Shown: positions 125 to 46,272, numbered from the stretch's first letter. The stretch is 64,000 nucleotides of DNA from Patescibacteria group bacterium (GCA_018062825.1 JAGORL010000002.1:129629-193628), one strand, 5' to 3'. The notes: generated by a model from the letters alone, not told the origin. Translations and numbers: made by a program.

Positions 125-170
125 GCCACCTTATTTCCTCGCACGGAAGTAGGGTGGCTTTCTTTTTATC
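125..170 (+). terminator. Rho-independent terminator: GCCACC...GGTGGC hairpin followed by a T-tract.
   Basis: gccaccttatttcctcgcacggaagtagggtggc followed by tttctttttat, immediately after the partial ORF stop. Confidence 0.6.
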
Positions 171-240
171 CCTACTCCCTACCTACAGCCCCAACGTAGT
201 CCGGCCCTACCGGACGAAGTGGGCCTATACCCCACCCCCT
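168..240. repeat. Dispersed structured repeat, copy A. Core CAGCCCCAACG-gtccgg/ccggac hairpin-CGAAGTGGGCC, with CCCTACTCCCTA flanks.
   Basis: Core 186-225 recurs at 16086-16119, 31252-31291 and 46164-46203 with the same flanks but compensatory stem changes. Confidence 0.75.
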
Positions 241-243
241 CCA

Positions 244-272
244 TTGACTTTTTCGCTAATTTCTGCTATGAT
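244..272 (+). promoter_or_regulatory. Sigma70-type extended -10 promoter: TTGACT-N17-TGcTATGAT.
   Basis: ttgactttttcgctaatttctgctatgat. The spacer and -10 are nearly identical to the promoter at 46089-46117, with a shared 'ttttcgctaatttctgctat' motif. Confidence 0.6.
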
Positions 273-315
273 CCTCGGTTGCTCACTTTTCAGAAATGAA
301 AAGATTGGGCACAAT

Positions 316-489
316 CATCACCATGTTTTCGGAGGATAGTGATGGCGTTCTGGGCTGGTTCTGCTAGTCCTTAACGCCGGCAGGCAGGTACCTCACCGGG
401 CTCCGGCTCGCTGATGGCACGCGCGCTTGTCACGGCATACATCGTTTTCGAACGATCACTGCGCCCCTGCCTCCGAAAACATGGTGATG
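316..489 (+). other. Structured 5'-leader element bounded by a perfect 20-bp inverted repeat (316-335 and 470-489). An internal UUCG hairpin lies at 441-456. It could be a cis-regulatory RNA or a MITE-like insertion.
   Basis: catcaccatgttttcggagg and cctccgaaaacatggtgatg are exact reverse complements. The internal hairpin is atcgtt-ttcg-aacgat. The element lies between the 244-272 promoter and the ATG at 615. Confidence 0.35.
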
Positions 490-614
490 ATTGTTTTTAA
501 CGAAGTTAAAAAACATCCCGAACAACATGAGGGATCCTGTGCCATAAACACAGGACATCATTACCACCGCCCCTTTCACTCAGTCATCCGCAACCCCGCA
601 CCCAGGAGCACGCC

Positions 615-1361
615 ATGTTCTTCACCTCCCTCTCCAGCGACCACGAAGGTAACGAGCTGCTCACCGTGTACGTCGGCAACGGCCTCAACCTCGCCGTCCT
701 CATGACGGCAATCGAGAACCCCGATCTCAGCGATGAGATCGACGAAGCGATCGAGGAGGGGCGCAACGTCGTCACGACGATGATCCTCATCGAAGACGAA
801 CCCCACGAGCAGCCGTTCGACGGCGTTGGCGGGTGGTCTACCGAGGACATCCCCCTGGAAAATGTCTTCATCTCTGAGGACCTCCCGCGCGTCTGGACCT
901 TGGAGGACGACGGGATGACGTGCTACATCTTCATCCCGGTCATCGCGCTCGATGAAGCGGATCAGGAGGAAGAGCTGCCGCCCCCGAGCGAGCCCTTCTT
1001 CCGACAGAATGACGAGCGTGAAGACGCGGTCTACAACGAGGAATGGGCACCGGTCTCGACCAACGATCTGATGACGGACGACGAGACCGACAGCATCGAC
1101 CCCGCCGATCTGGAGTGGTGGAGCGAGGAGGAGCTCAACGCCATCCTCATTCCCGTCGAAGAAGACGAAGAGCCCAACGAGCTCGCGGATCTGGACGTGG
1201 ATCTCACCAAGAACGACGCGCCCGACCCCAAGAAGGGCCAGCGTATCAGCGATCGCGGCTGGAAGAGCAAGCGTCAGTGGCAGAAGGGACGGGACAACCG
1301 TCTCTCCCGCCACGAGGCCCGAGCTGGCCTCAACTCCATCGTCCGGCGCCAGAGCGCCTGA
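615..1361 (+). CDS. Highly acidic (D/E-rich) hypothetical protein, GC-rich.
   Basis: 248-aa ORF with plausible composition. The antisense 264-aa ORF is L/V/G/R-rich junk. A + strand promoter lies upstream and a + strand terminator downstream. Confidence 0.6.
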   Translation: MFFTSLSSDHEGNELLTVYVGNGLNLAVLMTAIENPDLSDEIDEAIEEGRNVVTTMILIEDEPHEQPFDGVGGWSTEDIPLENVFISEDLPRVWTLEDDGMTCYIFIPVIALDEADQEEELPPPSEPFFRQNDEREDAVYNEEWAPVSTNDLMTDDETDSIDPADLEWWSEEELNAILIPVEEDEEPNELADLDVDLTKNDAPDPKKGQRISDRGWKSKRQWQKGRDNRLSRHEARAGLNSIVRRQSA

Positions 1362-1371
1362 CGACAACACG

Positions 1372-1412
1372 CCACCTCACTCCCCCGCGCGGGCGTGAGG
1401 TGGTTTTCTTTT
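1372..1412 (+). terminator. Rho-independent terminator: 9-bp stem CCACCTCAC/GTGAGGTGG followed by TTTTCTTTT.
   Basis: Directly after the TGA stop at 1359-1361. Confidence 0.7.
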
Positions 1413-1414
1413 AA

Positions 1415-1441
1415 AACAAAAAACGCCGATTTTTTCGGCGC
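1415..1441 (-). terminator. Rho-independent terminator for the minus-strand glycosyltransferase gene.
   Basis: Minus strand reads aaagcgccgaaaaaatcggcgtttttt, a hairpin followed by a T-run. Confidence 0.55.
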
Positions 1442-1459
1442 TTTGTCAAAATGTAAAAA

Positions 1460-2578
1460 TCACTGAAGAAGTACACCTAAGGTCTTTTGAGCAGTTGCTT
1501 CCCAAGAAAAATGCGCAACGCGCAACTTCCCTTTCTCAATCAGCTCATCACGCTTAACGCCCGAAAAAACAAGTTCGGAAAGCCTGGCCGCAAATGCCGG
1601 AGCATCACTTGGCGCCGCATAAAGCGCCGCCTCTCCGCACACCTCATGCATCACCGGAATATCACTCGCAATGACCGGCGAACCAAAACGCATCGCTTCA
1701 AGTACCGGCAAACCGAAACCTTCACCAATTGAAGGGAGAACTGTAGCAAAGGCCCCAGAATACAAAGCTAAGAGCTGCTCATCACGCACAAAACCAAGCT
1801 CAACAATATCTTCTTTCACCAGTGAATCAGCAATCTCGGCCTGAATCTTTTCATACTGATACCCTCGAGAACCAACAAGTACGAGCTTAAGCGGATGTCC
1901 AACCCCAAGCCGTTCTTTCAAAAGCGTAAAAGCACGAACAAGCGTGGCTACGTTCTTCTTAGCCTCTAGTCGACCAACGTATAAAACATAAAACGACGGA
2001 GCTAGTCGCAATGCACGAAGCGTGGCACCAACATCTAAAACCGCCACATCATCGGCAAATCCTGAGGCAAGTGGCGTCACCGTAATGCGATCAGCGTCAG
2101 CTTTAAAAAAACGAACGAGATCGGATTTAGTAGAAGCCGAAACCGCTAAAATTGACTCCGCTTCTTTTACCGCACGCTTCGTAGCCCAGTTAAGCCGCTT
2201 AAGTAACGACGGTTGATACACCTGCGGCGCAAATGCCTGCACCACATCATGAACAGTAGTCACTATGCGAGTACCTCGATGCAAAAAAGGAATCTCGTGC
2301 GCTGGCGCAAAGTAAACGTCCGGCGGTCGCACGAGCAGCTCCAGTGAGAGTCGGACGTGAGTAAAGCCTTTTTTGAGCGGATAGCTAAGCGAACGCCAAA
2401 GCCACTGTGGCGGAAGTGCAATATCAGCCGGCAAAGCGCCCTTAGCAACAAGTTCAAAAATAACGCCTGCCGGTACGGGTAATCTCATCATGGCTAAAAG
2501 AAGCTGACGCGCATAGCGCTCAACTCCTGTTGGATGAGATTTAAGAAGTGCGCTAGCGTCGATCATGATCCGCTTCAT
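1460..2578 (-). CDS. Glycosyltransferase family 1 (GT-B, GT4-like).
   Basis: The C-terminal 'EGFGLPVLEAMRFGSPVIASD' EX7E-type motif is typical of GT1. The start was trimmed to MKRIMIDASALL to avoid overlapping mreB; the ORF track gives 1460..2653. Confidence 0.75.
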   Translation of the reverse strand: MKRIMIDASALLKSHPTGVERYARQLLLAMMRLPVPAGVIFELVAKGALPADIALPPQWLWRSLSYPLKKGFTHVRLSLELLVRPPDVYFAPAHEIPFLHRGTRIVTTVHDVVQAFAPQVYQPSLLKRLNWATKRAVKEAESILAVSASTKSDLVRFFKADADRITVTPLASGFADDVAVLDVGATLRALRLAPSFYVLYVGRLEAKKNVATLVRAFTLLKERLGVGHPLKLVLVGSRGYQYEKIQAEIADSLVKEDIVELGFVRDEQLLALYSGAFATVLPSIGEGFGLPVLEAMRFGSPVIASDIPVMHEVCGEAALYAAPSDAPAFAARLSELVFSGVKRDELIEKGKLRVAHFSWEATAQKTLGVLLQ

Positions 2579-2600
2579 ATCGCTAGCTATCCTAACAATC

Positions 2601-3608
2601 TTATGACGAGCTGAAAAGCGAACGCTTGTAAGCATCAAGGTTCTCAAGCGCAAGTCCAGTGCCTCGAGCTACACAAAGCTGCGGATCTTCTGCCACGTAA
2701 CAAGGAACACTCGTAGCTTCCGTAATGAGTCGATCAAGGTTGCGTAACTGACTAGAGCCACCAGAAAGCACAATACCCTTATCCATCACATCTGCTGAAA
2801 GTTCAGGCGGCGTTTGGTTAAGCACCTCCTTCAAAGCAATAATAATACCGTTCAAGAGCTCATGAATCGCCTCAGTCACGTCATCAGAAGTCACCTCAAT
2901 GATCTTCGGTAATCCAGTAATCATGTCGCGACCCTTCACCTCAAGGCGCAATTTCTCCTGCAAATACATCGCGGAACCGCAACGAATCTTAATCTCTTCT
3001 GCCGTACGCTCACCAATCGCCAAGTTATAGGTTCGACGCACGTATTCCATAATGGCGTAATCAAACTTCACCCCACCAATACGCACCGAGGTAGAGGCAA
3101 CGATACCGCCCAAAGAAATAACCGCCATCTCACTTGTTCCGCCTCCAATTTCAACAATCATGTGCCCATTCGGGCTACCGATTGGAATGTTCGCGCCGAT
3201 TGCCGCCACAATCGGCTGCTTAATGATATAAGCCGCCTTAGCTCCGGCAGAAATAGCCGCATCAATAACAGCACGTCGCTCAGTGGAAGTAATACCGCCA
3301 GGAACCGCGATCATGACCTCTGGACGCAGTAAACGAACGCCACCAAGCGCTTTATTAATAAAATACCGAAGCATAGCTTCAGTTGTACCGTAGTCAGCAA
3401 TAACGCCATCTTTAAGCGGACGGCGCGCAACAATTGTGTCAGGCGTACGGCCAAGCATGTCTTTTGCCTCCTTGCCAACTGCAAGCACACTCCTGTCACC
3501 CTTTGAAATAGCAACAACCGACGGTTCATTAATAATAATGCCGCGCTTAGGTACGTAGACAAGTACCGTGGTCGTACCAAGGTCAATACCAATTTTTTTG
3601 CCAAACAT
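2601..3608 (-). CDS. mreB: Rod-shape determining actin homologue MreB.
   Basis: MFGKKIGIDLGTTTVLVYV...NEPSVVAI is an actin-fold MreB signature. Confidence 0.9.
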   Translation of the reverse strand: MFGKKIGIDLGTTTVLVYVPKRGIIINEPSVVAISKGDRSVLAVGKEAKDMLGRTPDTIVARRPLKDGVIADYGTTEAMLRYFINKALGGVRLLRPEVMIAVPGGITSTERRAVIDAAISAGAKAAYIIKQPIVAAIGANIPIGSPNGHMIVEIGGGTSEMAVISLGGIVASTSVRIGGVKFDYAIMEYVRRTYNLAIGERTAEEIKIRCGSAMYLQEKLRLEVKGRDMITGLPKIIEVTSDDVTEAIHELLNGIIIALKEVLNQTPPELSADVMDKGIVLSGGSSQLRNLDRLITEATSVPCYVAEDPQLCVARGTGLALENLDAYKRSLFSSS

Positions 3609-3610
3609 AG

Positions 3611-5668
3611 CTACCGCTTCAGCCGCACGCGGAAATGCTGATCTTGAGTAAGAACAGCATCAACAACATACGAGGTATTGAAATATTCTGCCGCAGCTTC
3701 ACCCGGAGTGGCAGTTGCCACCGTCGTACCAAAGTCCAAGTGCAGTGTCAAAAGAGTTTCCCCCGATCCCATCTGCTTCAGAGCCGTTAATTGATAATCA
3801 CCTCGAGAAATAGCCTCAATGACGCCAGGGGCAAGATCGTATTCAAACGTGACAGCATGCATATCCCCCGGTTCAACAGCAAAAAATCCACCAAACGTAG
3901 CAAAGCCTCGATCAACACCAAGTACAACCGGCGCCGCTAACGCTTGTGGATTCTCAATGGCGTCCCCAGCTAAAAAACCACTCGCTGAAATAAGTCGAGA
4001 ACCTTCGGGAACATACAGCTGCACATAATTTCGATACGCAGCGTCATTAAGTCCGCCTGTATGATCATACGTAACTCGAACCGTGGCTCGATAACCCTCA
4101 CCGTGCGGAGTCAGAGAGTACTCAATCGATCGATCAATAAGTGCATCGCTCACCGTGCTTACATTTGCGTCAACAACAAGTAACGTATCTTGGAACTGAT
4201 GAGCGACAAGTGAACCGCTCCAATTTTGAAGGTCAAAAGTTGACTGGGTAGCGGCATCACTACTAACAACCGCCAATTCTTTAGCGGCAAAGGCCTCATG
4301 CATCAAAGAAAAACCATCTGACCACCTACTTGGAGAAAGTGCGAACAATCGATCGGTTAACGCCAAGAATAAAGTCTGCAAAACCGCTGGATCCTCAAGG
4401 CTAAGCGCTAAAAGGTCAGGTAAATCCTGACGAGCATAGGTAACCCCATCAATCTGAACCGAACCTACAAGAAGAAATAATCGCTCAAAAAAGGCAGGTG
4501 TAACCGCAATCACCCCATCTACCTGCGGCGGCGTTAAACCAAGAAACGCCATCTCCTGACGAGTTAGCGCCGTAACTACCCGCGCCGTTTCCGGCATATG
4601 GGCCGACCAAGCGCTGTCAGCAATAAGCCAACTGGAAACGTCATGATATTCACGCAGTACATCAGGAACGGTAGCCGTATAGCCTGCAAAAAGCGCGGAA
4701 CTATCAAGCGTCTGTACATCTGTCGCTGCAAAAGAAACTATCTCTCCATCACGAATAAGAAGCTGGCCAACAATGGCAACAACACCTCCACCCGGACGAA
4801 GAGCGCCATCATCAAGGTACGCAACAAGTAACCGCTGATCAGTATTAAGTCCCGCAAACTCCGGAGCTATAGCAGCAAGCGGCTGCAAAACTTCAACCGT
4901 AGCAACCAGTTCCGGCAGCATAGACTGAAGTGGCAGCACAGCCTCAGTAATACGAGGATGAGCATTGAGTGCGTCAAGTCGCGCTAAATCATCTTGAGCC
5001 AATCGCAACCGAACCTCCATAGAACGCAAAGCGCCACTCGCGTTCGACAGCGCCCATAAAAGACGCTCTTTCTCAAGAGTAGAAAGGTCAGCATAGGGCC
5101 GAACGTCACCGGCGCCTGTAACAAGCACACCAGACAAACCATCAACACTTGCAAAAATATCTTCAGCAACCACAAAGCCATCAAGAAGAACGCTCACCGT
5201 GTGACTCGCGGCCGACGTCGCTCTACCTCCAGCCTCAAGTTGATCACCAAGGCCTGGCACGATCTTTAGATAGCTTAAACGCGACAATCCTCGCTCCATG
5301 CGTAAAAGGCCCGACTGAGCATCGGTGAGTGCTGTTCGCACCATAGGTAAATCAAGCTCTTCGCCAGACTCCTGTGCCACCGTTAAAGCCGTACGCGCGA
5401 GAACAGCGCCCTGAACAACGTCAACAAGCGCCACAACCGTAAGAATAGTAGCCGTTACCATCGATAGAAACGCTACAAGAAGCAGCTGCTTCAGTCCCCG
5501 TGACCAAACACGTCGCGGCCCACCCCCTGTACTTCCAACAATCGGCACCGGCGGCACAAAATCAAGCGAAGGCTTGGCTAAAAAAAGATCAGGCTCAGGC
5601 GTATGAAGCGCTCGAGGGGGCTGGCCAGGAACAAAAGAAACGCCACGAGAAGACATACTACTCGTCAA
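3611..5668 (-). CDS. Large membrane-anchored protein with an 'LRPGGG' motif (DUF4012-like). Paralog of 5658..7688.
   Basis: N-terminal TM helix. Motifs shared with the neighbour: LRPGGGVVAIVG, GYRATV and TFGGF. Confidence 0.5.
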   Translation of the reverse strand: MTSSMSSRGVSFVPGQPPRALHTPEPDLFLAKPSLDFVPPVPIVGSTGGGPRRVWSRGLKQLLLVAFLSMVTATILTVVALVDVVQGAVLARTALTVAQESGEELDLPMVRTALTDAQSGLLRMERGLSRLSYLKIVPGLGDQLEAGGRATSAASHTVSVLLDGFVVAEDIFASVDGLSGVLVTGAGDVRPYADLSTLEKERLLWALSNASGALRSMEVRLRLAQDDLARLDALNAHPRITEAVLPLQSMLPELVATVEVLQPLAAIAPEFAGLNTDQRLLVAYLDDGALRPGGGVVAIVGQLLIRDGEIVSFAATDVQTLDSSALFAGYTATVPDVLREYHDVSSWLIADSAWSAHMPETARVVTALTRQEMAFLGLTPPQVDGVIAVTPAFFERLFLLVGSVQIDGVTYARQDLPDLLALSLEDPAVLQTLFLALTDRLFALSPSRWSDGFSLMHEAFAAKELAVVSSDAATQSTFDLQNWSGSLVAHQFQDTLLVVDANVSTVSDALIDRSIEYSLTPHGEGYRATVRVTYDHTGGLNDAAYRNYVQLYVPEGSRLISASGFLAGDAIENPQALAAPVVLGVDRGFATFGGFFAVEPGDMHAVTFEYDLAPGVIEAISRGDYQLTALKQMGSGETLLTLHLDFGTTVATATPGEAAAEYFNTSYVVDAVLTQDQHFRVRLKR

Positions 5669-7688: not shown

Positions 7689-7738
7689 TGCGAGAGATAC
7701 TCAAAACACTGCAAGTATACCATTCAAACAACTACACA

Positions 7739-8785: not shown

Positions 8786-8790
8786 AGGAT

Positions 8791-14895: not shown

Positions 14896-14930
14896 GCCCT
14901 ATTCCCTAATGCCATAACCCCTATTCCCTA
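14896..14930. repeat. Two CTATTCCCTA direct repeats, the flank-type motif of the dispersed repeat family without a core.
   Basis: ctattcccta at 14899-14908 and 14921-14930. The second copy supplies the TAG stop (minus strand) of 14928..16010. Confidence 0.55.
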
Positions 14931-16010: not shown

Positions 16011-16070
16011 GAGACCTTACGTAATTGAGCCAACCTTCGTCAAGATCACCGCCCTTAAACAAGACCTAGG

Positions 16071-16140
16071 CCATTCCCTACTCTCCAGCCCCAACGAAGC
16101 CCGAAGGGCAAAGTGGGCCTACTCCTTATTCTCTCCTCGC
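16071..16140. repeat. Dispersed structured repeat, copy B. Core 16086-16119 has a variant stem gccc-gaa-gggc.
   Basis: cagccccaacgaagcccgaagggcaaagtgggcc with ccattccctactctc and ctactccttattctc flanks. Overlaps the stop of 16119..16976. Confidence 0.7.
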
Positions 16141-19057: not shown

Positions 19058-20526
19058 AGGCCAAATATCTGCTTGATGAACTTTTTAGTCATAAAAGTAA
19101 ACCGATCAAATCCTCGCACATCGCTTGTTAGCGTCACGCGAATCTCATACAGTCGCAAAGACTCTTCGTAACTGGAGACCTTTGGTACTGATATAAGAAA
19201 CTTATATGCCCCTCGCTCGGTTGCAAGTGATGAAAGCGGCCAGGTAGCAATCGCTTCTCGCACACCGCTTTCACTAAGTTGTGAGTCGGGCAAACGAGCA
19301 AGTACCGCACCACCAACATCCTCCGGGAAGCGCATACCAAGCGGTGGCGACTGCGGTGAAAAAAGTGCCCGCTCATGAAAGGCAAATGTTCCATCACCCG
19401 TAATGCGTATTAAGCCACCTGGAACAAGCAAAGCATCTCCGTCAAGTTCGACTTCATATTTCTCGCCAACGCGTGCAAGTTCCACCACCAAAGAACCTGA
19501 GCGCACCTGACCAAGCGCCTCAGCAGATAACGGCTCAATCACAACGCTACGTGCTGTCGTAAAAATCTCCATCTCGTCATCATAATCAAACTGCACACGA
19601 TTCTTAAACGCAAACTTACCAGTCGTTATTTCATAATTCGCAAAACGAATATCGCTCGTTGCCGTAAGCACCAAACGATATACACCCTCGGAGAGATTCG
19701 TCGCGGACAACTGAATCACACGAGCGTCTGACAAAATGCCATCAGTTGAAATATCACCATCATCAACAAGTGTCGCACTAGAAACCGCAGAGCCCTGCGC
19801 ATCAAAAAGCGCGACCACAACATCGTCCTGACCGTAAACAAGATTCGCATCAGAAGCAGTAAGCTCTAAAGTAATCGTCCCCTCCTGAACATAGACATAC
19901 GCCTCATGCGCACCAAAAAGAACTGCCTCACTCGTATAAAAACGATCAAGCGCTGCTCGCGCGCCTTCCCTATACTGCACCGGCCATGCGGCACGATACG
20001 TCGCAACCTGCGCTGGTGAAACATTACTTACTACTGCAGATGCCATTGATTCACCATCAGCTGGAATATACAAAGCAGCTACGCCATCTACAAGCTCAAC
20101 ACGCTCACCGGTAGCGCCCTCAAGACCAGCGTGAAACATCGGCACGAGATCATAGGCCTGCGCAAACAAATCCTTCAGGGCGCCAAGTTCGAAAAGCGGT
20201 GTACCCCCTTCTAAAAACACCACTTCAACCTGCGCAGCATCAAAATCTCCGTATGGCGGCGTAACTGTAAAATAAAGTGGCTCATCTTCAACAATCACAA
20301 AGGCGCCACGACCATCGCTTTGCACATCACTAAGCCGATCGCTCGGAAGTGGGCTATGAAGCCAAGTGCTTTCTTCACCAGGGCGCCAAACAAGAACGCG
20401 CTCTCCATCAAGTTGCGCATACTGCAAAAAAAGCCACAGCCAAAAAAAGGCTACAAGAAGCGAGAGAAATAATTTCACAATGAGAGTACGCATACTATCG
20501 AGATGAAATCTGATAAAGCGTCTCAT
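19054..20526 (-). CDS. Hypothetical membrane-anchored or secreted protein.
   Basis: N-terminal TM/signal 'LIVKLFLSLLVAFFWLWLFL' with a large extracytoplasmic domain. Confidence 0.5.
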   Translation of the reverse strand: MRRFIRFHLDSMRTLIVKLFLSLLVAFFWLWLFLQYAQLDGERVLVWRPGEESTWLHSPLPSDRLSDVQSDGRGAFVIVEDEPLYFTVTPPYGDFDAAQVEVVFLEGGTPLFELGALKDLFAQAYDLVPMFHAGLEGATGERVELVDGVAALYIPADGESMASAVVSNVSPAQVATYRAAWPVQYREGARAALDRFYTSEAVLFGAHEAYVYVQEGTITLELTASDANLVYGQDDVVVALFDAQGSAVSSATLVDDGDISTDGILSDARVIQLSATNLSEGVYRLVLTATSDIRFANYEITTGKFAFKNRVQFDYDDEMEIFTTARSVVIEPLSAEALGQVRSGSLVVELARVGEKYEVELDGDALLVPGGLIRITGDGTFAFHERALFSPQSPPLGMRFPEDVGGAVLARLPDSQLSESGVREAIATWPLSSLATERGAYKFLISVPKVSSYEESLRLYEIRVTLTSDVRGFDRFTFMTKKFIKQIFGL

Positions 20527-29203: not shown

Positions 29204-31219
29204 TTACCACGATGCTATCGATCCTCCGGCTAAAAGAGATGCGAGACTCGTTGGTAATAAAACCGCGTCGCCGCTAGCAAAAACCGCGGAGAGTCCACTA
29301 GGAACGCTGAACAAAATGTCAGGAATTTCGTCCTGAGAAACATCAACCACGTGCACCGTAGCACCCACCGGAACAGTCACCGCAAAATTAAATGCTCCAA
29401 TACGATTGTAAGCGAAAACCGTACCACTTGAAGACGAAACAACAATTTCATCACGACTATCGTCATCAAAATCACGCGCTTGCAGGCCAGTAATTACCGC
29501 GCCACTAGGCACTCCAGAAAACGATCCTCGATCGGTGCCATCAATGTCATACGTAGCGACTCTGCTGCCACCAAGCTCTGCAACCGTAATCTCCCAATCC
29601 CAATCGTCATCAACGTCCGCGATCGCAACCATAAGCGGAGCTCCCACCGTAAAGCCCTGCGGAGTAAAGCGAGCAAGCTCAATACCCGTATCCGAATACA
29701 CAATGACATCCTCCCCACCAACCGTTGCGGTCACAATGTCGTAATACGTGTCGCCAATAATATCGCCAACCGCAATACGAACGCCATGCGTATCAATGGC
29801 TTCACCAGCGTAAAACGCTCGAGCCAACTGACCACCCGTTGTAAACACGCGAACAAGCGGCGGCGCACCAACGCCAACACCAGTAACAATTTCCGGAACC
29901 TCACTACCGGCAACGTCACCAAGATCAACGTAAATGCCTACATTCAGATCCTGAGCGTAAGGAGCGAAACTTGCTAACTCCATGCCAACGCCATCATACA
30001 AACGAACAAGCGGCACTTCACCAGCTGCCGATCCAAAGACAAAGTAATCAAGACCAAGACGCGCCGGTGGCCGAACAACTATCGCCTCATCAGGTAGCGC
30101 CTCAGCTGTCGAGAAAGCAGCCCCCACACTAAGCGCACGCGCCACGTTTAATCGACCAACACCAATCGCATTCATGGCGCTTAAATGTGAACTCACCGGA
30201 TCAACTGACAGTTTCAAAATAATGCGCACCTCTTCCGGAGTTAAATCTGGGTAACGAGCCAACAGCAAGGCTGCACCACCTGCAACAAGCGGTGCGGACG
30301 CTGAAGTACCGGTCCATGTCACATCCCCGCCCTCAGGCCGATCCTCACCATAAACCGATAAACCGAGCATATCTTCCCCGGGAGCGCTCAAATCAGCACA
30401 AGTAGCACCATAGTTTGTAAAATCCGTCTCGCCATCAAAGTAATCCGTCGCAGCTACGCCGATCACCCAATCCGCGGTGTCGTTCCCCAAACAAGCCGGG
30501 TACACCGGGTAATCATCAACGTTCAGGGCCTCGTTACCCAAAGATGCGACTATCACCACGCCAGCGTCATATGCTCTCCTGATCGCCGTACGCAAGCGCG
30601 AGGAAATATCTGAACCCGCAATACTTAAATTAATCACCCGCGCCCCTTGTGCTACGGCATAATCAACTGCTTCCGCCGCATCCTCCTCCGTGCCGTTACC
30701 ATTCGCATCCAAAATACGCAGCGGCAACAGTGCCGTCTGATGAGCTACTCCAATATAACCAGTGGCATTATTAGCTTCAGCTGCAATTAGCCCTGCCACA
30801 AACGTCCCGTGTGAGAGCTCGTCATCTTGAGAAAAATCCGGGCGGACATCGGCATCCTCATCCACAAAATCCCAACCGGATACGTCATCAATAAAACCAT
30901 TATTATCGTCATCAATATCATTGCCAGCAACCTCAAGAGGATTAATCCAAATATTAGCGGCAAGATCCGGATGATCCGTTGAGATCCCTGAATCAAGGAC
31001 CGCAACAATCACCTGAGCACTTCCCGCCGTAGTCTCCCAAGCAAGTTCAGAAGAAATACGCTCCAGGTACCACTGATCCAAATAACCTGGATCATCAAAG
31101 GTAGCGGCCTGCACAAGCGATGGCGTAAGAACTGCAAACAAACTCAACCAAACCAAGAAGCCGCGTACAAAAGACATATATACGCAGTATACGGCCTTAC
31201 CTAAATAAAAAAAGAGCAC
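29204..31219 (-). CDS. Secreted subtilisin-like serine protease (peptidase S8) with C-terminal FG-GAP/VCBS-like repeats.
   Basis: Catalytic D (VLDSGI), H (HGTFVAG) and S (GTSASAP). The ORF as drawn begins with GTG. An ATG 14 codons downstream (MSFVRGFLVW...) gives a clean signal peptide. Confidence 0.85.
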   Translation of the reverse strand: MLFFYLGKAVYCVYMSFVRGFLVWLSLFAVLTPSLVQAATFDDPGYLDQWYLERISSELAWETTAGSAQVIVAVLDSGISTDHPDLAANIWINPLEVAGNDIDDDNNGFIDDVSGWDFVDEDADVRPDFSQDDELSHGTFVAGLIAAEANNATGYIGVAHQTALLPLRILDANGNGTEEDAAEAVDYAVAQGARVINLSIAGSDISSRLRTAIRRAYDAGVVIVASLGNEALNVDDYPVYPACLGNDTADWVIGVAATDYFDGETDFTNYGATCADLSAPGEDMLGLSVYGEDRPEGGDVTWTGTSASAPLVAGGAALLLARYPDLTPEEVRIILKLSVDPVSSHLSAMNAIGVGRLNVARALSVGAAFSTAEALPDEAIVVRPPARLGLDYFVFGSAAGEVPLVRLYDGVGMELASFAPYAQDLNVGIYVDLGDVAGSEVPEIVTGVGVGAPPLVRVFTTGGQLARAFYAGEAIDTHGVRIAVGDIIGDTYYDIVTATVGGEDVIVYSDTGIELARFTPQGFTVGAPLMVAIADVDDDWDWEITVAELGGSRVATYDIDGTDRGSFSGVPSGAVITGLQARDFDDDSRDEIVVSSSSGTVFAYNRIGAFNFAVTVPVGATVHVVDVSQDEIPDILFSVPSGLSAVFASGDAVLLPTSLASLLAGGSIASW

Positions 31220-31238
31220 CGACCACAGTCAGGTGCCC
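31203..31238 (-). terminator. Rho-independent terminator downstream of 31291..31980.
   Basis: Minus strand reads gggcacc-tgactgtggtc-ggtgct-ttttttt. Confidence 0.5.
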
Positions 31239-31239
31239 T

Positions 31240-31310
31240 ATTCTCTTCCTCCAGCCCCAACGTAGTCCGGCTCTGCCGGACGAAATGGGCCTATTCCCTA
31301 CACGCTCCCT
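31240..31310. repeat. Dispersed structured repeat, copy C. Core 31252-31291 has the hairpin gtccggc-tct-gccggac.
   Basis: cagccccaacgtagtccggctctgccggacgaaatgggcc with ccctattctc and ctattccctac flanks. The flank supplies the TAG stop of 31291..31980. Confidence 0.75.
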
Positions 31311-31980: not shown

Positions 31981-32075
31981 ATGGCACGAATGTTAGTTGA
32001 AAATTGAGAAAAAAGCAACAAAACCATCCTACCTTCCGTTTCCCCCTTTCCACCCTTCCGCCTTTCCGCCAACAC

Positions 32076-38078: not shown

Positions 38079-38285
38079 GTATTAAGTCGTTATAAAAAGA
38101 AGATCATTACACCACCCATAAAAAACCGCTAAACTGACTGCAAAACCTACCATAAACCGGTCTAAAAGAGCAATGGAGTGAAAAATGGCCATAAAACTTT
38201 TGGCTACACCTGTTTTGACAAACACCTTCAAGCACCGTAAAGTATGAAACATTAAGACGCGACGCTAAGCCAAACGTTACAGTCT

Positions 38286-38570
38286 ATGTCTACCACCTCA
38301 CAAATCAGGCTCTCAGTCTCAGAAGCCGCTAAGATCTTCGGTGTAAGCACTCGAACCGTACGTCGCGCCATTGCCGACGGCGAAGTTAGCTACATCGTCG
38401 TTCAAGGCAGATACAAGATCGCCTTCCCTTCCCTACTTGCCTGGTCACAACGCACCACAACCGTCAAAAACAAGCTGGCAAAAGAAGGCATTGGCCAATA
38501 CGTAGCCCAGTGGTCCATTAAGAACACACTCTACTCGCCAAAGGCGCCTGAAAAAGGACTTGAAGCCTAA
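38286..38570 (+). CDS. Small HTH DNA-binding protein (excisionase/MerR-like HTH_17).
   Basis: 'LSVSEAAKIFGVSTRTVRRAIADGEVSY'. Confidence 0.6.
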   Translation: MSTTSQIRLSVSEAAKIFGVSTRTVRRAIADGEVSYIVVQGRYKIAFPSLLAWSQRTTTVKNKLAKEGIGQYVAQWSIKNTLYSPKAPEKGLEA

Positions 38571-39699
38571 AGTGACTATGCGCGCCTATAAAGACAAGAT
38601 CTTAGCTCAATTCCTTGACGAACTCCCTGTCGTCTCACTTAAGACACTCCTCAAGCCACAAACAAATGAATTACGAGCACTACGAAACGCCCTTGAATCG
38701 GAAACAGGCGCTCTACCTCTATTGTCGTTCCCGAGGGTCAATTCATTTCAGGTAGCAGACGCAAAACAGGCAGCACACGCCATACACCAAAAAATAGCGA
38801 GCTCCCCCGCTCACCCGATCCTAGTACGCTTCTACCTTGAAAAACTTTCAGAGTACGAACTAAAAATCGATCTCATTGAAGCCGTACAAAAGGATGACTC
38901 GCTTGCCATTGGTCGCTTAACACAAAAAATCCACGGCCCAGTCACTATCACAACTAACAAATACGAAGAGTTGATCACGAAACGTCTACAAGACCACAAG
39001 GCGATCACACCGAAAAAGAAATCTAAAACCGTGAACGCTGAAACCTTTGCAAAACTAGCGCGACAAAAGCTAGACGCGATCGGCGGCCAAGACTGGGCAA
39101 TCAAGGTAATGAAACGAGATCGCATCCAGATCGCCTACAAAAGAGCCGGCTCCGCAACGCTACGCATTCCAGCTGACCTTGAACTAACGAAAAAGCGTGC
39201 AGAGCAAATTCTGCGTCATGAAATTGACGGACATGCAAAACGCACAATAAACGGCTTACAAAGCGGCTATAAAATCCTCGGTCGAGGACTAGCGTATTAC
39301 AAACGAACCGAAGAAGGCGTGGCAACGCACATCCAGAAAACGGTAAATAGCGGGCTCTGGGACGGATACGCCGCAAGCCTCCGTAAAGAACAAGATCTGC
39401 AAGAGGCCTACAATGCACTCGTAGAGAAAAAAATGCGGTACTATCAAAGCCTCAAAAAAACTGACGCTAAAGATCTCGCAAAAGCTAGCGCCTGGCGACT
39501 AATCAAGCGAACGCTCCGCGGAGTGCACGATCCTTCTCAGGCTGGAGCCGCCTTCTTCCGCACGCATATTTACTTTGAAGGTAAAGAAGAGGTGCGCAAA
39601 GCAATTAAAAAAAATCCACTCATCATGAACGATCTCATGATCGGCAACATCGGCCTACAGCACGTACACGAAGTCAAAGAACTCTTAGCGACAAAATAA
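38560..39699 (+). CDS. DUF1704-like protein with an HExxxH motif and a QEGLA-like motif.
   Basis: 'RHEIDGHAKR' (HExxxH) and 'EEGVATH' resemble the QEGLA-motif family. Confidence 0.45.
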   Translation: MKPKVTMRAYKDKILAQFLDELPVVSLKTLLKPQTNELRALRNALESETGALPLLSFPRVNSFQVADAKQAAHAIHQKIASSPAHPILVRFYLEKLSEYELKIDLIEAVQKDDSLAIGRLTQKIHGPVTITTNKYEELITKRLQDHKAITPKKKSKTVNAETFAKLARQKLDAIGGQDWAIKVMKRDRIQIAYKRAGSATLRIPADLELTKKRAEQILRHEIDGHAKRTINGLQSGYKILGRGLAYYKRTEEGVATHIQKTVNSGLWDGYAASLRKEQDLQEAYNALVEKKMRYYQSLKKTDAKDLAKASAWRLIKRTLRGVHDPSQAGAAFFRTHIYFEGKEEVRKAIKKNPLIMNDLMIGNIGLQHVHEVKELLATK

Positions 39700-39728
39700 A
39701 AATTCCCCAATTGGGGAATTTTTATTTA
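39700..39728. terminator. Bidirectional rho-independent terminator.
   Basis: aaaaattcccc-aatt-ggggaattttta. Confidence 0.75.
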
Positions 39729-40895
39729 CTCTGTTGCAAGTGCTGGCAGATCTGAGGCGTAAATCGTTTCGTTCCCACGATAACATCGCAGAACATCGAT
39801 CGCGATATCATCCCAGTTAAAGGAAGTCTCAACATACGCTCGACCAGAATGACCAAGGGAAGCCGCATGCATCGGATCCTTCAAAAGATCGGCAATTTCA
39901 CGAGCAAGAGCTTTTTCATCTGACTTCGGCACAATAATGCCGTGATCAGCAACAACCTCTTTATTCTCTGGAATGTCGGCAGCGATAACTGCCTTGCCGT
40001 AGCTCATGGCTTCAAGAAGTGCAATCGGCAAACCCTCACTTACTGAAGGGTGCACTACAAATCGCGTACCCATAAAAAGCGCTTGAAGCGCTGGGCCTGA
40101 CTGATTACCCGTAAAGACAATCGAGTCGTCACCCTGCGCGAGCTCTTTTAATTCACGAACGTAGGTGTCGGTAAATGCACCGTCACCGATGATCGCAAGC
40201 TTCATGCCTTTGATTGCCGAGGCATTGTGCTTTTGCAAATACTTCCAAGCAGCAATGAGCGTATGCTGACCTTTATGGCGAACCAGGCGTGAAACCATGG
40301 CAATGTAACGGAAGCTCACTAAACCAAATTGTTCAAGAAGGTCATCATTGACACTGGCGCGCACAGGAGTAATGCCATTTGGCACATACGTCGCTCGCGC
40401 TCCGTACTCTTTCTTTACATAGGAAGCAATCGACTGACTCACGGCAATTGTCTGATGCGGAAAGGCTACAGCCGCCCGCTCTCCAAGCTTCAACATGAAG
40501 CGTGCAAAGAAACTCCACTTAGCATGTGTTCGATCAACGCTATGAAACGTTGAAAGCACAGTTGCACGAGGAGCAAGAATGCGGGGCAAAAAAGCCAAGA
40601 GCGACGGGCCTACGCCATGAAAGTGATAAACATCTGGACGCTCAACAAAAAGCGCATGAACCGTTGCCAAAAAAGTATGCGTAATGGCATCAAGGTTTTT
40701 CGTGTGAATGCTCGGCAAGCGAACAACCCGCACCTGAAAATACGAACGAACAGTCTTTGGCGTATACCAATAACGCGCATAAGCCACGACATCGTGACCA
40801 AAGCGTGCCAAACGAGGGGCTAATTCAGCAACGTGTGTTTCAACGCCACCAAACTTACCCGGAAGACCTTTTTGACCGATCATGGCAATTTTCAT
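39726..40895 (-). CDS. Glycosyltransferase family 1.
   Basis: MKIAMIGQKGLPGKFGGVETHVAELAPRLA... Confidence 0.85.
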   Translation of the reverse strand: MKIAMIGQKGLPGKFGGVETHVAELAPRLARFGHDVVAYARYWYTPKTVRSYFQVRVVRLPSIHTKNLDAITHTFLATVHALFVERPDVYHFHGVGPSLLAFLPRILAPRATVLSTFHSVDRTHAKWSFFARFMLKLGERAAVAFPHQTIAVSQSIASYVKKEYGARATYVPNGITPVRASVNDDLLEQFGLVSFRYIAMVSRLVRHKGQHTLIAAWKYLQKHNASAIKGMKLAIIGDGAFTDTYVRELKELAQGDDSIVFTGNQSGPALQALFMGTRFVVHPSVSEGLPIALLEAMSYGKAVIAADIPENKEVVADHGIIVPKSDEKALAREIADLLKDPMHAASLGHSGRAYVETSFNWDDIAIDVLRCYRGNETIYASDLPALATE

Positions 40896-40903
40896 AACCG
40901 GCT

Positions 40904-40932
40904 ATAATAGCAGAAATTTGGCTAACTGTCAA
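40904..40932 (-). promoter_or_regulatory. Extended -10 promoter TTGACA-N17-TGcTATTAT giving a leaderless or near-leaderless mRNA.
   Basis: Minus strand: cgTTGACAgttagccaaatttcTGcTATTATagccggttATG. The -10 ends 8 nt before the ATG. Confidence 0.6.
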
Positions 40933-40987
40933 CGAAAAATGGCTAAATGTGCGTCAAGATATTTAGCTAACTTTAGCTAAATAATGA

Positions 40988-42238
40988 CTATTTTTGCACT
41001 ACCTGTTGATAAATAGCCATCACCGCCTCATTGTGCACTTGCGGATCCCCTACCTCCTCAGCCCTGCTGCGCGCTGCCTGAGCGGTTAAACGCGCCGCCT
41101 CAACATCATTGTTAAGCGCAAAGTGGCGAACCGCTTTTTTATAACCTTCTATATCCTGCGCTCGCACAACTGCGCCGTGCGCAACTACCTCGGGCTTATC
41201 GGTTAAACCAAGCACCTCAGGTAAACCACCACGATCACTCACCACAACCGCCGCTCCTGTCGTTAAGCCTTCAAGGGCCACTAAACCAAATGGCTCGTAC
41301 CACTGCGATGGCACAAGCACTACCCGTACCTGCGCCATCATGGCCCACAAGGCTTCGCTGCGTAAAAATCCTACATAGGTCACATTTTTACGCAGTGCAG
41401 CAATGCGCTGCACTTCCAAAGCAAGCGGTCCTGTACCGGCAAAATAAAACTGTATTCCAGGCAGCACCTCAGCAAGTCGCAACGCTAATTGCACACCTTT
41501 ATAGTCTTCAAGTCGCCCAGCAAATAAAACCCCTGATCGCTCCCCCGTCTCAAGAGGCATATTACGAACAAGAGGTTCAGAAAACGGTGGAATAACAACG
41601 CACTTCTCTTTTGCAATACCAGACGTAATAAGTTCACCACGAACGAATGTCGACAACGTAATGTAATAAGAAATAGCGCTATCAAAATAACGCCGTGCTC
41701 GCTGAAAACGCACAATGCCCTCCAAAGCAAAGGTGGCCAAACGCGAGCCTTTAATAAAGCGAGTGCCGACAATGGAGAAAAAACCACGTTCATCATCTCG
41801 CAAAGGATGATCACCTCCCCATAAAGAGTAGTTAGCGCTAACAAGCGCATAATCGTGTGCCGTCATCACAACAGGAATACCTCGCCGCTTACACTCCCAA
41901 AGAACTGACGGAGAAAGATGCGTGTAAATATTGTGAACATGAACAACATCCGGCGAAAATGCCTCCAATATACGTCGCATGTATCTTGCAGATTCAAACG
42001 ACCACAGCGCCCGTTGCATCTGTCTAAGTGCACCAAGCCCGCGAGCAATACCACTTGTCTTCATTTCCGGAACAAAAAACTCGCTCCATGGCGTTGGAAG
42101 ATTTCGATCCTCGTGCATGGCAAACGGCGCAACCGTATGCCCCGCCGCCTCCTGCATGCGCATAAGCCCAATCATGTAACGACTGGCGCCGTCCTGATCA
42201 TGGTAATACTTGTGCACGTGCAGAATTCTCATATGCAA
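40988..42238 (-). CDS. Glycosyltransferase family 1.
   Basis: The N-terminal 'ILHVHKYY...' is GT4-like. The C-terminal domain carries the GT-B motif. Confidence 0.8.
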   Translation of the reverse strand: MHMRILHVHKYYHDQDGASRYMIGLMRMQEAAGHTVAPFAMHEDRNLPTPWSEFFVPEMKTSGIARGLGALRQMQRALWSFESARYMRRILEAFSPDVVHVHNIYTHLSPSVLWECKRRGIPVVMTAHDYALVSANYSLWGGDHPLRDDERGFFSIVGTRFIKGSRLATFALEGIVRFQRARRYFDSAISYYITLSTFVRGELITSGIAKEKCVVIPPFSEPLVRNMPLETGERSGVLFAGRLEDYKGVQLALRLAEVLPGIQFYFAGTGPLALEVQRIAALRKNVTYVGFLRSEALWAMMAQVRVVLVPSQWYEPFGLVALEGLTTGAAVVVSDRGGLPEVLGLTDKPEVVAHGAVVRAQDIEGYKKAVRHFALNNDVEAARLTAQAARSRAEEVGDPQVHNEAVMAIYQQVVQK

Positions 42239-42257
42239 AGTATATCAGGCGCACCAC

Positions 42258-42280
42258 TATTCCCTATACCCTATTCCCTA
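42258..42280. repeat. CTATTCCCTA-type direct repeats (flank motif only).
   Basis: ctattccctataccctattcccta. On the minus strand this lies at the -35 region of the TGaTATACT extended -10 promoter of 40988..42238. Confidence 0.5.
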
Positions 42281-42331
42281 AAAAGAAAACCGGCGCACCC
42301 CTCCCACCCGAAGGTAGAAGAAGTGCGCCGG
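42281..42331 (-). terminator. Intrinsic terminator with a UUCG loop and G-U wobble pairs (minus-strand specific), followed by a U-tract.
   Basis: Minus strand: ccggcgcac-uucuucuacc-UUCG-ggugggagggg-ugcgccgg-uuuucuuuuu. Confidence 0.7.
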
Positions 42332-42356
42332 TGCGTGCCGCGCGGAGTCGTGTCCG

Positions 42357-45218
<2,862 letters not shown>

Positions 45219-45287
45219 GAGAACCTCGGGCTACAGGGTGAATAGGAACGTGATTTTTCACACGCTAATTGTGAACGAACTAGGCTA

Positions 45288-45316
45288 AATATAGCAAAAA
45301 AATGGCATTTTGTCAA
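45288..45316 (-). promoter_or_regulatory. Extended -10 promoter TTGACA-N17-TGcTATATT.
   Basis: Minus strand: gaTTGACAaaatgccatttttttGcTATATTtagcc, about 63 nt upstream of the ATG at 45218. Confidence 0.6.
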
Positions 45317-45317
45317 T

Positions 45318-45360
45318 CAAAAAAAGAACTCCCGTACCGCCTTTTCAGGTGGTACGGGAG
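45318..45360 (-). terminator. Rho-independent terminator: 10-bp stem CUCCCGUACC/GGUACGGGAG followed by a U-tract.
   Basis: Minus strand: ctcccgtacc-acctgaaaaggc-ggtacgggag-ttcttttttt. Confidence 0.7.
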
Positions 45361-45366
45361 CACGCG

Positions 45367-46071
45367 TCACGCGCAACGCTTGCGGCGCAACAAGTAACCG
45401 ACGAAGGGCAGCAGGATTACCGGGAAGCCGCCACTCGAGTCGCACCGACAACCCGGATCACCCAGGAAGGGCGGCGGACTCGTGGAGCACCGGCAGCCGG
45501 TTGCGGGAAAGCCACCGGTGTCACCAGAGCACTCGCCCTCGATCTCATCCACACAACCGTCGCAGTTGTTGTCACGACCGTCCTCCGGAATCTCGGGCGC
45601 ACCAGGGTAGGTGGCCGCGTCCCAGGGATCGCAGTCGTCGAGCGCCTCGTAGACGTCGAGCGCCACGAAGCCATCGCCGTCGCAGTCGTTGTCGAGCACG
45701 TCAGCGTCGCCCTCATCCCAGAGGCCGTCGCAGTCGTTGTCGATCCCGTCACACACCTCCACGGCGCCCGGATTGGTCTCCGAGTCGCCGTCGTTGCAGT
45801 CGTGTACGGCGGGATTGAAATTGCCGTAAACGTAGGCCGTGGCCATAGGGGCGTTCGGATCATCCGGATCCTCGTGCCACTCCGGCCCCTCCTCCAGGCA
45901 CCCAAACGGGTCCGCGTAGCGGGGCCACTTCTTCGTGGCCTCGTGACAGTTCACGAAGCCGTCGCCATCGACGTCATCTTCGGTCTTGTTACACCCCCCA
46001 AGGAGGGTGAAGAGCAGGAACAGGAACATGGTAAAGAGCGTCTTCACGGCGCCTCCAGGGTTGGGGTTCAA
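45367..46071 (-). CDS. Acidic lipoprotein with three MopE-like repeats and a C-terminal Cys / hydrophobic / Arg-rich tail (PEP-CTERM/MYXO-CTERM-like).
   Basis: Lipobox 'LLGGC'. 'PGAVEVCDGIDNDCDG' repeats. C-terminus 'GCRCDSSGGFPVILLPFVGYLLRRKRCA*'. Confidence 0.7.
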   Translation of the reverse strand: MNPNPGGAVKTLFTMFLFLLFTLLGGCNKTEDDVDGDGFVNCHEATKKWPRYADPFGCLEEGPEWHEDPDDPNAPMATAYVYGNFNPAVHDCNDGDSETNPGAVEVCDGIDNDCDGLWDEGDADVLDNDCDGDGFVALDVYEALDDCDPWDAATYPGAPEIPEDGRDNNCDGCVDEIEGECSGDTGGFPATGCRCSTSPPPFLGDPGCRCDSSGGFPVILLPFVGYLLRRKRCA

Positions 46072-46088
46072 GAAATCGTGAAGAGTAA

Positions 46089-46117
46089 AATATAGCAGAA
46101 ATTAGCGAAAATGTAAA
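46089..46117 (-). promoter_or_regulatory. Extended -10 promoter TTTACA-N17-TGcTATATT.
   Basis: Minus strand: cTTTACAttttcgctaatttcTGcTATATTttactc. Shares 'ttttcgctaatttctgctat' with the promoter at 244-272. Confidence 0.6.
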
Positions 46118-46149
46118 GAGTCTAGGGTGTGGAGTATTCAGCCATTTAT

Positions 46150-46272
46150 CTACTCCCTACTTACAGCCCCAACGTAGTCCGGCTCCGCCGGACGAAGTGG
46201 GCCCTACTCCCTACTTACTACTCACTACTCTCTATCCCCTATTCCCTATTCTCTATACCCTATCCCCTAAAA
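46150..46272. repeat. Dispersed structured repeat, copy D (core 46164-46203), with an extended array of CTAYTCCCTA-type direct repeats.
   Basis: cagccccaacgtagtccggctccgccggacgaagtgggcc flanked by ctactccctac...ctatcccctattccctattctctataccctatcccct. Confidence 0.75.

Follow-up and report, generated by a model that had tools for sequence, protein, structure and literature searches.

The locus and its dispersed repeat

The 64,000-nt stretch analysed here (the window), from a Patescibacteria group bacterium (GCA_018062825.1), corresponds to positions 129,629-193,628 of record JAGORL010000002.1. Together with adjoining sequence on either side, taken from the 197,747-bp contig JAHZTO010000049.1 (assembly GCA_020049755.1), where the window occupies the same positions, 77.5 kb were read, spanning window coordinates -9424 to 68119. 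Most genes in the window lie on the minus strand, and the + strand exhibits a negative GC skew and a positive AT skew throughout. The backbone has approximately 48% GC and is interrupted by islands of 60-69% GC that code for acidic proteins or MopE-repeat lipoproteins. Dispersed through this region are copies of a short repeat, consisting of a hairpin core flanked by arms of a tandem heptamer, which is the element considered in this work.

A previous sequence-only reading of the window had listed four cores, and these were recovered exactly. All four are near-identical, 34-40 nt long and situated on the + strand (Table 1), whereas the core pattern yielded no match in 100 dinucleotide shuffles. 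The element is the only non-coding dispersed family (listed as D17) among the 20 largest of the 51 direct-repeat families in the window. A covariance model was built from five copies and run with filters off. The copy-number check suggested by the earlier reading proved productive, revealing three further cores to the left of the window, within 13.4 kb of the adjacent contig. In total, the 77.5 kb contain seven cores at six loci plus two core-less arrays, a core density of approximately 1 per 11 kb. The copies scored 68-94 bits in the model, the core-less arrays (about 14 bits) were the only other matches in the 77.5 kb, and no other core-containing match above 15 bits was obtained in the window and loci L117, L118 and L124. 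Furthermore, the element adopts the same + strand orientation at all eight loci (two-sided binomial ~0.008), whether the neighbouring genes run in one direction or the other. The four in-window cores (starting at 186, 16086, 31252 and 46164) are separated by strikingly even distances of 15,900, 15,166 and 14,912 bp. A regular spacing of about 15 kb was nevertheless rejected, since copy 0 lies only 1454 bp to the left of copy 1, the cA/cB pair lies at -9.2 kb, and there is no copy near 61 kb.

Table 1. Coordinates of the cores, arms, arrays and copy 4 module (window numbering)
Feature	Position	Strand	Description
cA	-9200..-9161	+	Core; first member of head-to-tail pair
cB	-9154..-9120	+	Core; second member, followed by five heptamers and the tRNA-Thr(TGT) gene
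Copy 0	-1268..-1229	+	Fifth core, in adjacent contig
Copy 1 5' arm	168..185	+	ATCCCTACTCCCTACCTA, ~2 heptamer units; directly after terminator T-run
Copy 1 core	186..225	+	CAGCCCCAACG-TAG-TCCGG-CCCTA-CCGGA-CGAAGTGGGCC; 91.6 bits; single-stranded DNA (ssDNA) z -3.6
Copy 1 3' arm	226..243	+	TATACCCCACCCCCTCCA; ends exactly at -35 hexamer TTGACT (244-249) of + strand promoter
Core-less array	14897..14930	+	CCCTATT CCCTAAT GCCATAA CCCCTATT CCCTA; 13.6 bits
Copy 2 5' arm	16070..16085	+	GCCATTCCCTACTCTC
Copy 2 core, short-stem variant	16086..16119	+	GCCC-GAA-GGGC, GAAG replaces GTAG; 72.2 bits
Copy 2 3' arm	16120..16137	+	TACTCCTTATTCTCTCC; overlaps final 6 codons of RmlD-like gene (...GENKE*)
Copy 3 5' arm	31236..31251	+	CCCTATTCTCTTCCTC; between core and minus-strand terminator-like hairpin 31219-31232
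Copy 3 core	31252..31291	+	Loop TCT; C.A at outer pair 29-53; 94.4 bits
Copy 3 3' arm	31292..31301	+	TATTCCCTAC; inside last codons of TPR gene
Core-less array	42255..42280	+	CACTATT CCCTATA CCCTATT CCCTA
154-bp module	46118..46271	+	32 nt of unique sequence, 5' arm, copy 4 core, ~10-unit array, one TAAA
Copy 4 core	46164..46203	+	Loop TCC; 90.3 bits; ssDNA z -3.9
Copy 4 long array	46202..46269	+	~9.4-10 units; 21-bp super-period

Core architecture and predicted fold

Alignment of the seven copies gave the consensus (CCCTAYT)1-2 - YTC - CAGCCCCAACG - TA - GTCCGGC - NNN - GCCGGAC - GAA - GTGGGCC - (TAYTCCC)n. The whole unit spans about 75 nt and comprises 1.5-2 (up to 10) CCCTAYT heptamers, the box CAGCCCCAACG, an unpaired GTA(G), the stem, the box CGAAGTGGGCC and more heptamers. 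The inner hairpin, enclosed by the boxes CAGCCCCAACG and GAAGTGGGCC, consists of a GC-rich stem with a loop of 3-5 nt and an unpaired GTAG before the stem. Its stem measures 6-7 bp in five copies and 4 bp in the other two (copy 2 and cB), and the same two copies carry GAAG at the 5' foot in place of the GTAG found in 5/7 copies. On each side of the inner hairpin, about 11 nt of additional conserved sequence pair into a further stem that has a CA bulge (GCCC/GGGC plus AC/GU). Between the two stems lies an internal loop (GUA/GAA) that is 3x3 and purine-rich.

RNA and DNA parameters predict the same fold, and the ssDNA folds of the five long-stem copies reach z values of -3.4 to -5.0. RNAalifold recovers the inner stem and places the outer stem one column away from its position in the manual model. 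In the seven-copy alignment, 94% of the cells are paired, compared with 29-43% when the 3' partners are slid. The three hairpins of the form GTCCGG(C)-loop-(G)CCGGAC, with loops CCCTA, TCT and TCC, were found as originally described; in copy 1 a C.A mismatch at the top stem pair produces the 5-nt loop CCCTA. The fourth, GCCC-GAA-GGGC, is indeed present in copy 2, but it is not the wholly different stem it had been taken for: four of the seven stem pairs are retained, one shows a compensatory U-A to C-G change, and the top of the stem is deleted. A second pair changes from C-G to U-A in cA, with a C.A intermediate in copy 1. The earlier proposal that the stem is kept as structure is supported by two covarying pairs, though 28 of 500 shuffles equalled this signal; the covariation is genuine but thin. 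Moreover, the boxes outside the hairpin are almost invariant, unpaired bases included, even in copy 2 with its remodelled hairpin.

A cUUCGg tetraloop on the minus strand of copy 2 was rejected because its register gives two pairs only, the predicted register being a 4-bp stem with a triloop. Reading the GUA/GAA internal loop as a K-turn or loop-E motif, together with HutP/TRAP-type binding to UAG repeats, was set aside on account of the inconsistent orientation relative to transcription.

Heptamer arms and core-less arrays

The flanking repeat had been described as an 11-12 bp direct repeat. Tandem Repeats Finder (TRF) instead gave a period of 7 bp, with the unit CCCTAYT, at 42257-42280 and 46202-46269, with a secondary period of 21 bp. 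Since the period is 7 bp, CTAYTCCCTAY represents 1.5 units and the sites are therefore not one helical turn apart, which weakens the suggestion of a protein-binding module with that spacing. The window contains 11 strings resembling CCCTAYTCCCTA (0.2 expected), none of them on the minus strand. A 7-nt recurrence of CTA extends over 4 units from 42257 and over 10 units from 46204, and never occurs in reverse orientation. Most copies carry about 2 units per side, and only copy 4 reaches about 10. Both core-less arrays reported previously were confirmed, at 14897-14930 and 42255-42280. The possibility that the core had been inserted in phase into a pre-existing heptamer array was rejected, as the register is restored at copy 4 only.

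Read on the gene-sense (minus) strand, the arms have the sequence TAGGGNN and would be expected to stop an incoming open reading frame (ORF) within 21 nt; in the copy 4 array, the 7-nt recurrence of CTA places TAG in all three frames of that strand. Five quadruplex-type motifs (G3+N1-12 x4) were detected in the 77.5 kb, all on the minus strand, presumed to be the leading strand. Three of them fall in element arms (170-207, 14897-14928 and 46236-46267), that is, at three of the eight element loci, and the G-runs of the arms could form quadruplexes.

Genomic context of the copies

Copy 1 separates the T-run of a + strand terminator (125-168) from the -35 hexamer at 244; copy 4 separates a minus-strand terminator's T-run from the -35 sequence TGTAAA (46112-46117) of a paralogous minus-strand promoter. 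The two copies thus occupy the same position at paralogous terminator/-35 junctions that are inverted relative to each other, while their chromosomal orientation is unchanged. In copies 2 and 3 the final C of the core doubles as the first base of a CTA (TAG) stop, belonging to the minus-strand RmlD-like gene in copy 2 and to the minus-strand TPR gene in copy 3; copy 3 is followed on the minus strand by a terminator-like hairpin. The position of the hairpin directly after two stop codons may entail a side effect on the host. The 42255 array adjoins the T-run of the minus-strand terminator of a 953-aa MopE-repeat gene. The last CTA (14928-14930) of the 14897 array is the native TAG stop of the minus-strand RmlA-like gene, and 3' of this array on the minus strand lies a hairpin followed by TTTTCGTT, read by eye and not flagged by the terminator scan.

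Consistent with the sequence-only reading, the minus-strand ORFs ending at 14928, 16119 and 31291 all stop at a CTA (= TAG) of an element flank. Insertion into gene 3' ends, which had been deduced from this, was not demonstrated: the C-terminus of RmlA (...GDNARVQL) is the same as in its homologues, so that the array simply starts at the normal stop codon, and of the three genes only RmlA could be compared with close homologues. The claim that copies always sit between a terminator or stop and the next promoter fails at two loci outside the window, copy 0 and cA/cB, which lie in divergent regions, one upstream of holB and pA (a gene at -1059..98) and the other upstream of a tRNA-Thr gene.

No constant spacing of the elements to promoters or terminators was found. 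The element thus keeps to one DNA strand but to no fixed position relative to transcription, which argues for a DNA-level rather than an RNA-level logic. Similarity among the copies ends 15-25 nt outside the core, and the adjoining genes (holB, tRNA-Thr, RmlD/RmlA, TPR/S8 peptidase, MopE) are unrelated. Because the flanks are unrelated beyond the arms, the element is an independent, dispersed one.

The tandem cores cA/cB are located immediately upstream of tRNA-Thr(TGT), at the expected promoter position. This gene belongs to a tRNA-Tyr, tRNA-Thr(GGT), tRNA-Thr(TGT) cluster at positions 19787-20434 of locus L124 (window about -9063 to -8416).

An empty site at copy 4 in a relative

Locus L125, on JGI contig Ga0315910_10094613, contains both genes flanking copy 4: P0125, an orthologue (68% aa identity) of gene 46347..47705, followed by an orthologue of gene 45367..46071. 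The intervening spacer is ~87% identical to that of the window through the terminator, the promoter and the 5' untranslated region (UTR). In L125 the terminator T-run leads straight into the -35 sequence (...CTCTTTTGCTTTGACAAAATCGCTAATTTTTGCTATATT...), and the 154 bp at 46118-46271 have no counterpart. At the copy 4 spacer, the module is thus gained or lost in one piece. The window also contains paralogous spacers that are just as compact, 45219-45366 for instance, so that a gain in this lineage is the simpler reading of the empty site. Whether or not the module is present, the genes around copy 4 keep the same order, which fits a gain and speaks against a role in cassette recombination.

The earlier reading had also called for a search for target-site duplications. 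A direct TAAA does flank the copy 4 module, at 46114-46117 (part of the -35 TGTAAA) and 46268-46271, but this candidate is only 4 bp long, lies in an A/T-rich context and comes from a single empty site.

The family is absent from the more distant relatives L120 and L122, in which RmlA is 67-70% identical and the local gene order is kept; this, too, fits a gain. In L122 the annotated RmlD and RmlA genes are 14 bp apart, and its RmlD-like gene is only 27% identical to that of the window and non-orthologous, so that the sites are not strictly comparable. The sister-species contig L123 (80% DNA identity), collinear over 48.0-50.3 kb, spans an element-free stretch only.

In the comparison with L125, the DNA of the terminator, promoter and 5' UTR (window 46040-46360 versus L125 1630-1840) is ~87% identical, but the flanked surface protein (P0125 versus P0126) shows 68% aa identity. 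This contrast hints at diversifying selection on the MopE-like lipoproteins.

Searches for the family in other genomes

The sequence collections were scanned with the pattern CAGCCCCAACGN{8,30}RAARTGGGCC. No true core was found in GTDB representative genomes (46 stretches), JGI metagenomes (68) or viral contigs (0), the stretches returned being chance or coding-sequence matches without hairpin or heptamers. The scanned JGI collection contains the L125 contig, and still no true core was returned, again in keeping with a gain at copy 4. BLASTN of the copy 4 region against phage and plasmid collections gave nothing. Rfam yielded no window match at the gathering threshold, and only sub-threshold eukaryotic noise around copy 4. 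Literature searches found no repetitive extragenic palindromic (REP) family and no family of miniature inverted-repeat transposable elements (MITEs) reported for Patescibacteria, members of the candidate phyla radiation (CPR). The earlier statement that the family is not a described one consequently holds at the level of sequence, in Rfam and the collections, but not at the level of architecture: the inner GTAG, GC-rich stem and 3-nt loop match the architecture of GTAG-tagged REPs (PMC3733652).

A proposed REP-like insertional element and competing explanations

Taken together, the repeat is best filed as a real, previously uncatalogued family of a known (REP) kind, in a phylum where none was found reported. 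A REP/MITE-like element, as first proposed, is still the best reading, in view of the empty site in L125 and the unrelated neighbours. More specifically, we propose a lineage-specific, non-autonomous, GTAG-REP-like insertional element with microsatellite arms, a proposal to which we give about an even chance of being right. According to this model, copies would spread as DNA, most likely by way of a single-stranded hairpin recognised in trans by a REP-associated tyrosine transposase (RAYT) or an IS200-like HUH tyrosine transposase encoded elsewhere in the genome. Copies would land in A/T-rich spacers that separate a terminator or stop codon from the promoter that follows, and the arms would then lengthen or shorten (2 to ~10 units) through replication slippage.

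Several observations weigh against this model. All copies are direct, with no inverted pairs of the kind seen in REP doublets (REPINs) or bacterial interspersed mosaic elements (BIMEs), the sole dimer being the head-to-tail cA/cB with 6 nt between core matches, and two copies carry GAAG rather than GTAG. The near-invariant outer boxes exceed the needs of a RAYT-type hairpin, and a host protein site or very recent spread would explain them equally well. The strand bearing GTAG is the C-rich, A-rich one, apparently the leading-strand template, which, provided that GTAG marks the active strand, would run counter to the IS608 paradigm. The 4-bp TAAA repeat at copy 4 hints at a staggered-cut mechanism, a repeat that HUH transposition does not produce. 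The Pfam lists for the genes of the 77.5 kb contain no transposase of any kind, RAYT included. Finally, the covariation mentioned above is equalled by some shuffles and comes from the only seven cores known, and the empty site is not strictly polarised, a deletion in the relative L125 being possible.

The invariance of the boxes CAGCCCCAACG and GAAGTGGGCC, copy 2 included, would suit a host cis-acting DNA site, in which the boxes plus hairpin, or the arrays, bind a chromosomal protein. Candidates are nucleoid or gyrase/IHF-type binding as at the BIMEs of E. coli, or a replication-polar signal comparable to KOPS or Chi. Its uniform orientation on one strand would in that case stem from a function tied to the direction of the fork, and the single orientation at 8/8 loci over ~55 kb of constant GC skew agrees with this, as do arrays that are G-run-rich on the presumed leading strand and carry quadruplex-type motifs at three loci. 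Yet the copy 4 module is dispensable in L125, where terminator and promoter are otherwise conserved, and the family is absent from related genomes. The 7-bp period places successive units on different helix faces, spacing to promoters and terminators is not constant, and density and context resemble those of selfish intergenic repeats. We regard a host site as rather unlikely. REPs of E. coli have been reported to act at the RNA level, as 3'-end or stop-proximal hairpins, and a role as RNA is ascribed to many REPs. Alone or together with UAGGGNN repeats, the hairpin might similarly be a 3'-end stabiliser, a processing site or a stop-proximal hairpin modulating termination or tmRNA recruitment. 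In copies 2 and 3 the hairpin starts where the preceding gene ends, at its stop codon. Transcription would extend over copy 3 and the 14897 array, each of which has a stop codon before it and a terminator-like hairpin after it, and some of the stem variation is G.U-compatible. These G.U-type changes, however, favour the minus strand twice and the + strand once, and the copies show no consistent orientation with respect to the direction in which genes are read: in + sense, copy 1 comes after a + strand terminator, minus-strand terminators precede both copy 4 and the 42255 array, and copies 0 and cA/cB are situated in divergent promoter regions. With no Rfam match and no consistent promoter upstream of the cores, an RNA element appears improbable.

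A further possibility, that the copies are recombination sites comparable to integron attC sites and delimit high-GC gene cassettes gained by horizontal transfer, draws on the positions of some copies. Copy 0 and copy 1 bracket the 67% GC gene pA, and the 60-63% GC MopE island (42.3-50.3 kb), within which copy 4 lies, has the 42255 array at its start. The element occurs in 4/9 spacers beside high-GC genes versus 4/~28 other spacers, an enrichment that is not significant (rough estimate p ~0.08). The boxes do not fit the attC consensus RYYYAAC / GTTRRRY, no integrase appears in the Pfam lists of the annotated neighbours, and gene order in L125 is the same without the module, so that an attC assignment is disfavoured. 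Moreover, L123 is collinear over 48.0-50.3 kb, pB (the gene starting at 615) and the right edge of the island lack the element, and copies 2, 3 and cA/cB lie between ordinary 48% GC genes, all of which makes cassette sites very improbable. Hardly credible is the view that there is no independent element at all, but chance similarity or duplicated gene ends, the latter having been named by the earlier reading as grounds for abandoning the family. Two paralogous MopE genes (42283 and 46272) have arrays next to their terminators that could partly descend from gene duplication, but the core pattern had no shuffle matches, the neighbours are unrelated and the similarity stops at the arms. As for a bolder version of the insertional element, the family might represent a new composite class, with a GTAG hairpin between conserved boxes plus polar TAGGGNN arms, spread by a replication-coupled single-strand route in an ultra-small CPR genome, its strict strand polarity, G-run arms and all-frame stops having been co-opted as a chromosome-polar or transcription-unit-capping signal; we consider this improbable.

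Patescibacteria/CPR genomes are about 1 Mb in size and are usually called streamlined. If the REP-like reading is true, a family at ~1 copy per 11 kb implies that selfish hairpin repeats persist even in such genomes, and that an HUH-type mobilising enzyme persists there too. The element would then also be a handy marker for strain typing and rearrangements, and its uniform orientation would allow replication-coupled insertion to be tested in an uncultured lineage. The family is also of concern to annotation pipelines, since its arms create TAG stops and its cores sit on stop codons.

High-GC genes and other features of the region

Seven genes of 60-69% GC stand out from the 48% GC backbone (-1059..98, 615-1361 and 42357-50294). 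Two of them code on the + strand for acidic, cytoplasmic-looking proteins and five on the minus strand for Asp/Cys-rich lipoproteins, MopE being Pfam-confirmed in two. A near-consensus sigma-70 promoter and a 5' UTR of some 60-340 nt precede every one of the seven, and a strong terminator follows it. For MopE, the nearest homologues come mostly from Myxococcota. Public gene calls place pA and pB on the wrong strand, as ORFs of 410 and 264 aa. Upstream of several of these genes lies a promoter module, TTGACW-TTTTCGCTAATTTCTGC-TATRWT, at 244-272 (+), 46089-46117 (-), 49415-49443 (-) and 45288-45316 (-), whose conserved spacer suggests a common regulator or recent duplication. Between the promoter at 244-272 and the start of pB extends a 340-nt untranslated leader (273-614) that holds a 23-codon ORF (296-367).

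Elsewhere, the pyrimidine-rich spacer downstream of a 1365-aa gene carries four tandem copies of the 8-mer TTTCCGCC (32039-32070), and a similar C/T-rich tract is found at 55175-55197. The gene at 38560-39699 (+) encodes a protein with a Pfam MATCAP match (microtubule-associated tyrosine carboxypeptidase; E 6e-21), here in a CPR bacterium.

Comparison with known repeat systems

The short tandemly repeated repetitive (STRR) sequences of cyanobacteria are heptanucleotide tandem repeats with CCCCAGT-type units. The arrays described here resemble them as intergenic tandem repeats of a 7-nt unit in variable copy number, and differ from them in the unit (CCCTAYT), in being coupled to a hairpin core and in the phylum of the host. 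With MITEs the element shares the character of a small non-coding insertion in A/T-rich spacers, with an empty site in a relative and a possible 4-bp TAAA duplication at copy 4. Unlike MITEs, it has no terminal inverted repeats common to the copies; its arms are direct repeats, and its ends are fuzzy as arm length varies. The core ends share GCCC/GGGC only, and the ends of the 154-bp module match at 10/15 positions when inverted, a match absent at the other copies. A left-end TAGGGTG inverted repeat in copies 1 and 4 was rejected as a terminal inverted repeat, since its copy 1 version coincides with the 3' half of the pA terminator, which is homologous to the element-free pB terminator.

Uniform orientation is expected when insertion of the IS200/IS605 type is coupled to one template strand at the fork. 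The element resembles IS200/IS605 single-strand transposition (PMC6006769) in being hairpin-based and uniformly oriented along a constant GC skew. It departs from IS200/IS605 derivatives in having a single hairpin rather than left-end plus right-end hairpins and in lacking a fixed 4-5 nt target, since the left flanks differ (TTTTA, GTAAA, GGTG and others). It further departs from this system in the possible 4-bp flanking duplication at copy 4 and in a GTAG strand that is apparently the leading-strand template.

The closest parallel is offered by the GTAG-tagged REPs, treated by Di Nocera et al. 2013 (PMC3733652) and Nunvar et al. 2010 (PMC2817692). In these REPs the stem measures 6-13 bp and the loop mostly 2-3 nt, a terminal GTAG is left unpaired, and sub-families with compensatory changes occur; flanking ORFs often obtain a TAG stop from a REP terminus, conserved palindromes surround the repeat in some families, head-to-tail dimers are rare, and RAYT transposases are their hypothesised mobilisers (PMC3733652). 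Patescibacteria is not among the phyla named in the abstract, the full list comprising eight (PMC3733652). The present element differs in occurring only in direct orientation, with no head-to-head or tail-to-tail dimers or BIMEs, in its conserved outer boxes, its tandem heptamer arms and its two GAAG copies, and in having no RAYT within 77.5 kb. GTAG (or GYAG / GTRG) is expected in >90% of the members of a GTAG-tagged family, and GTAG is found here in 5/7, a small sample. REP families of this type consist of 20-40 nt units, often number more than 100 copies in a genome, frequently form inverted dimers and usually flank the cognate RAYT gene; the seven cores here come from 77.5 kb. Both are short extragenic stem-loops, here with a core of 34-40 nt, a GC-rich stem, a 3-nt loop and GTAG at the 5' foot. 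The element likewise has compensatory stem variants, a frequency of ~1 per 11 kb and a location mostly just downstream of ORFs, supplying or abutting their TAG stops, and, like some GTAG-tagged REP families, it is nested in conserved flanking sequence.

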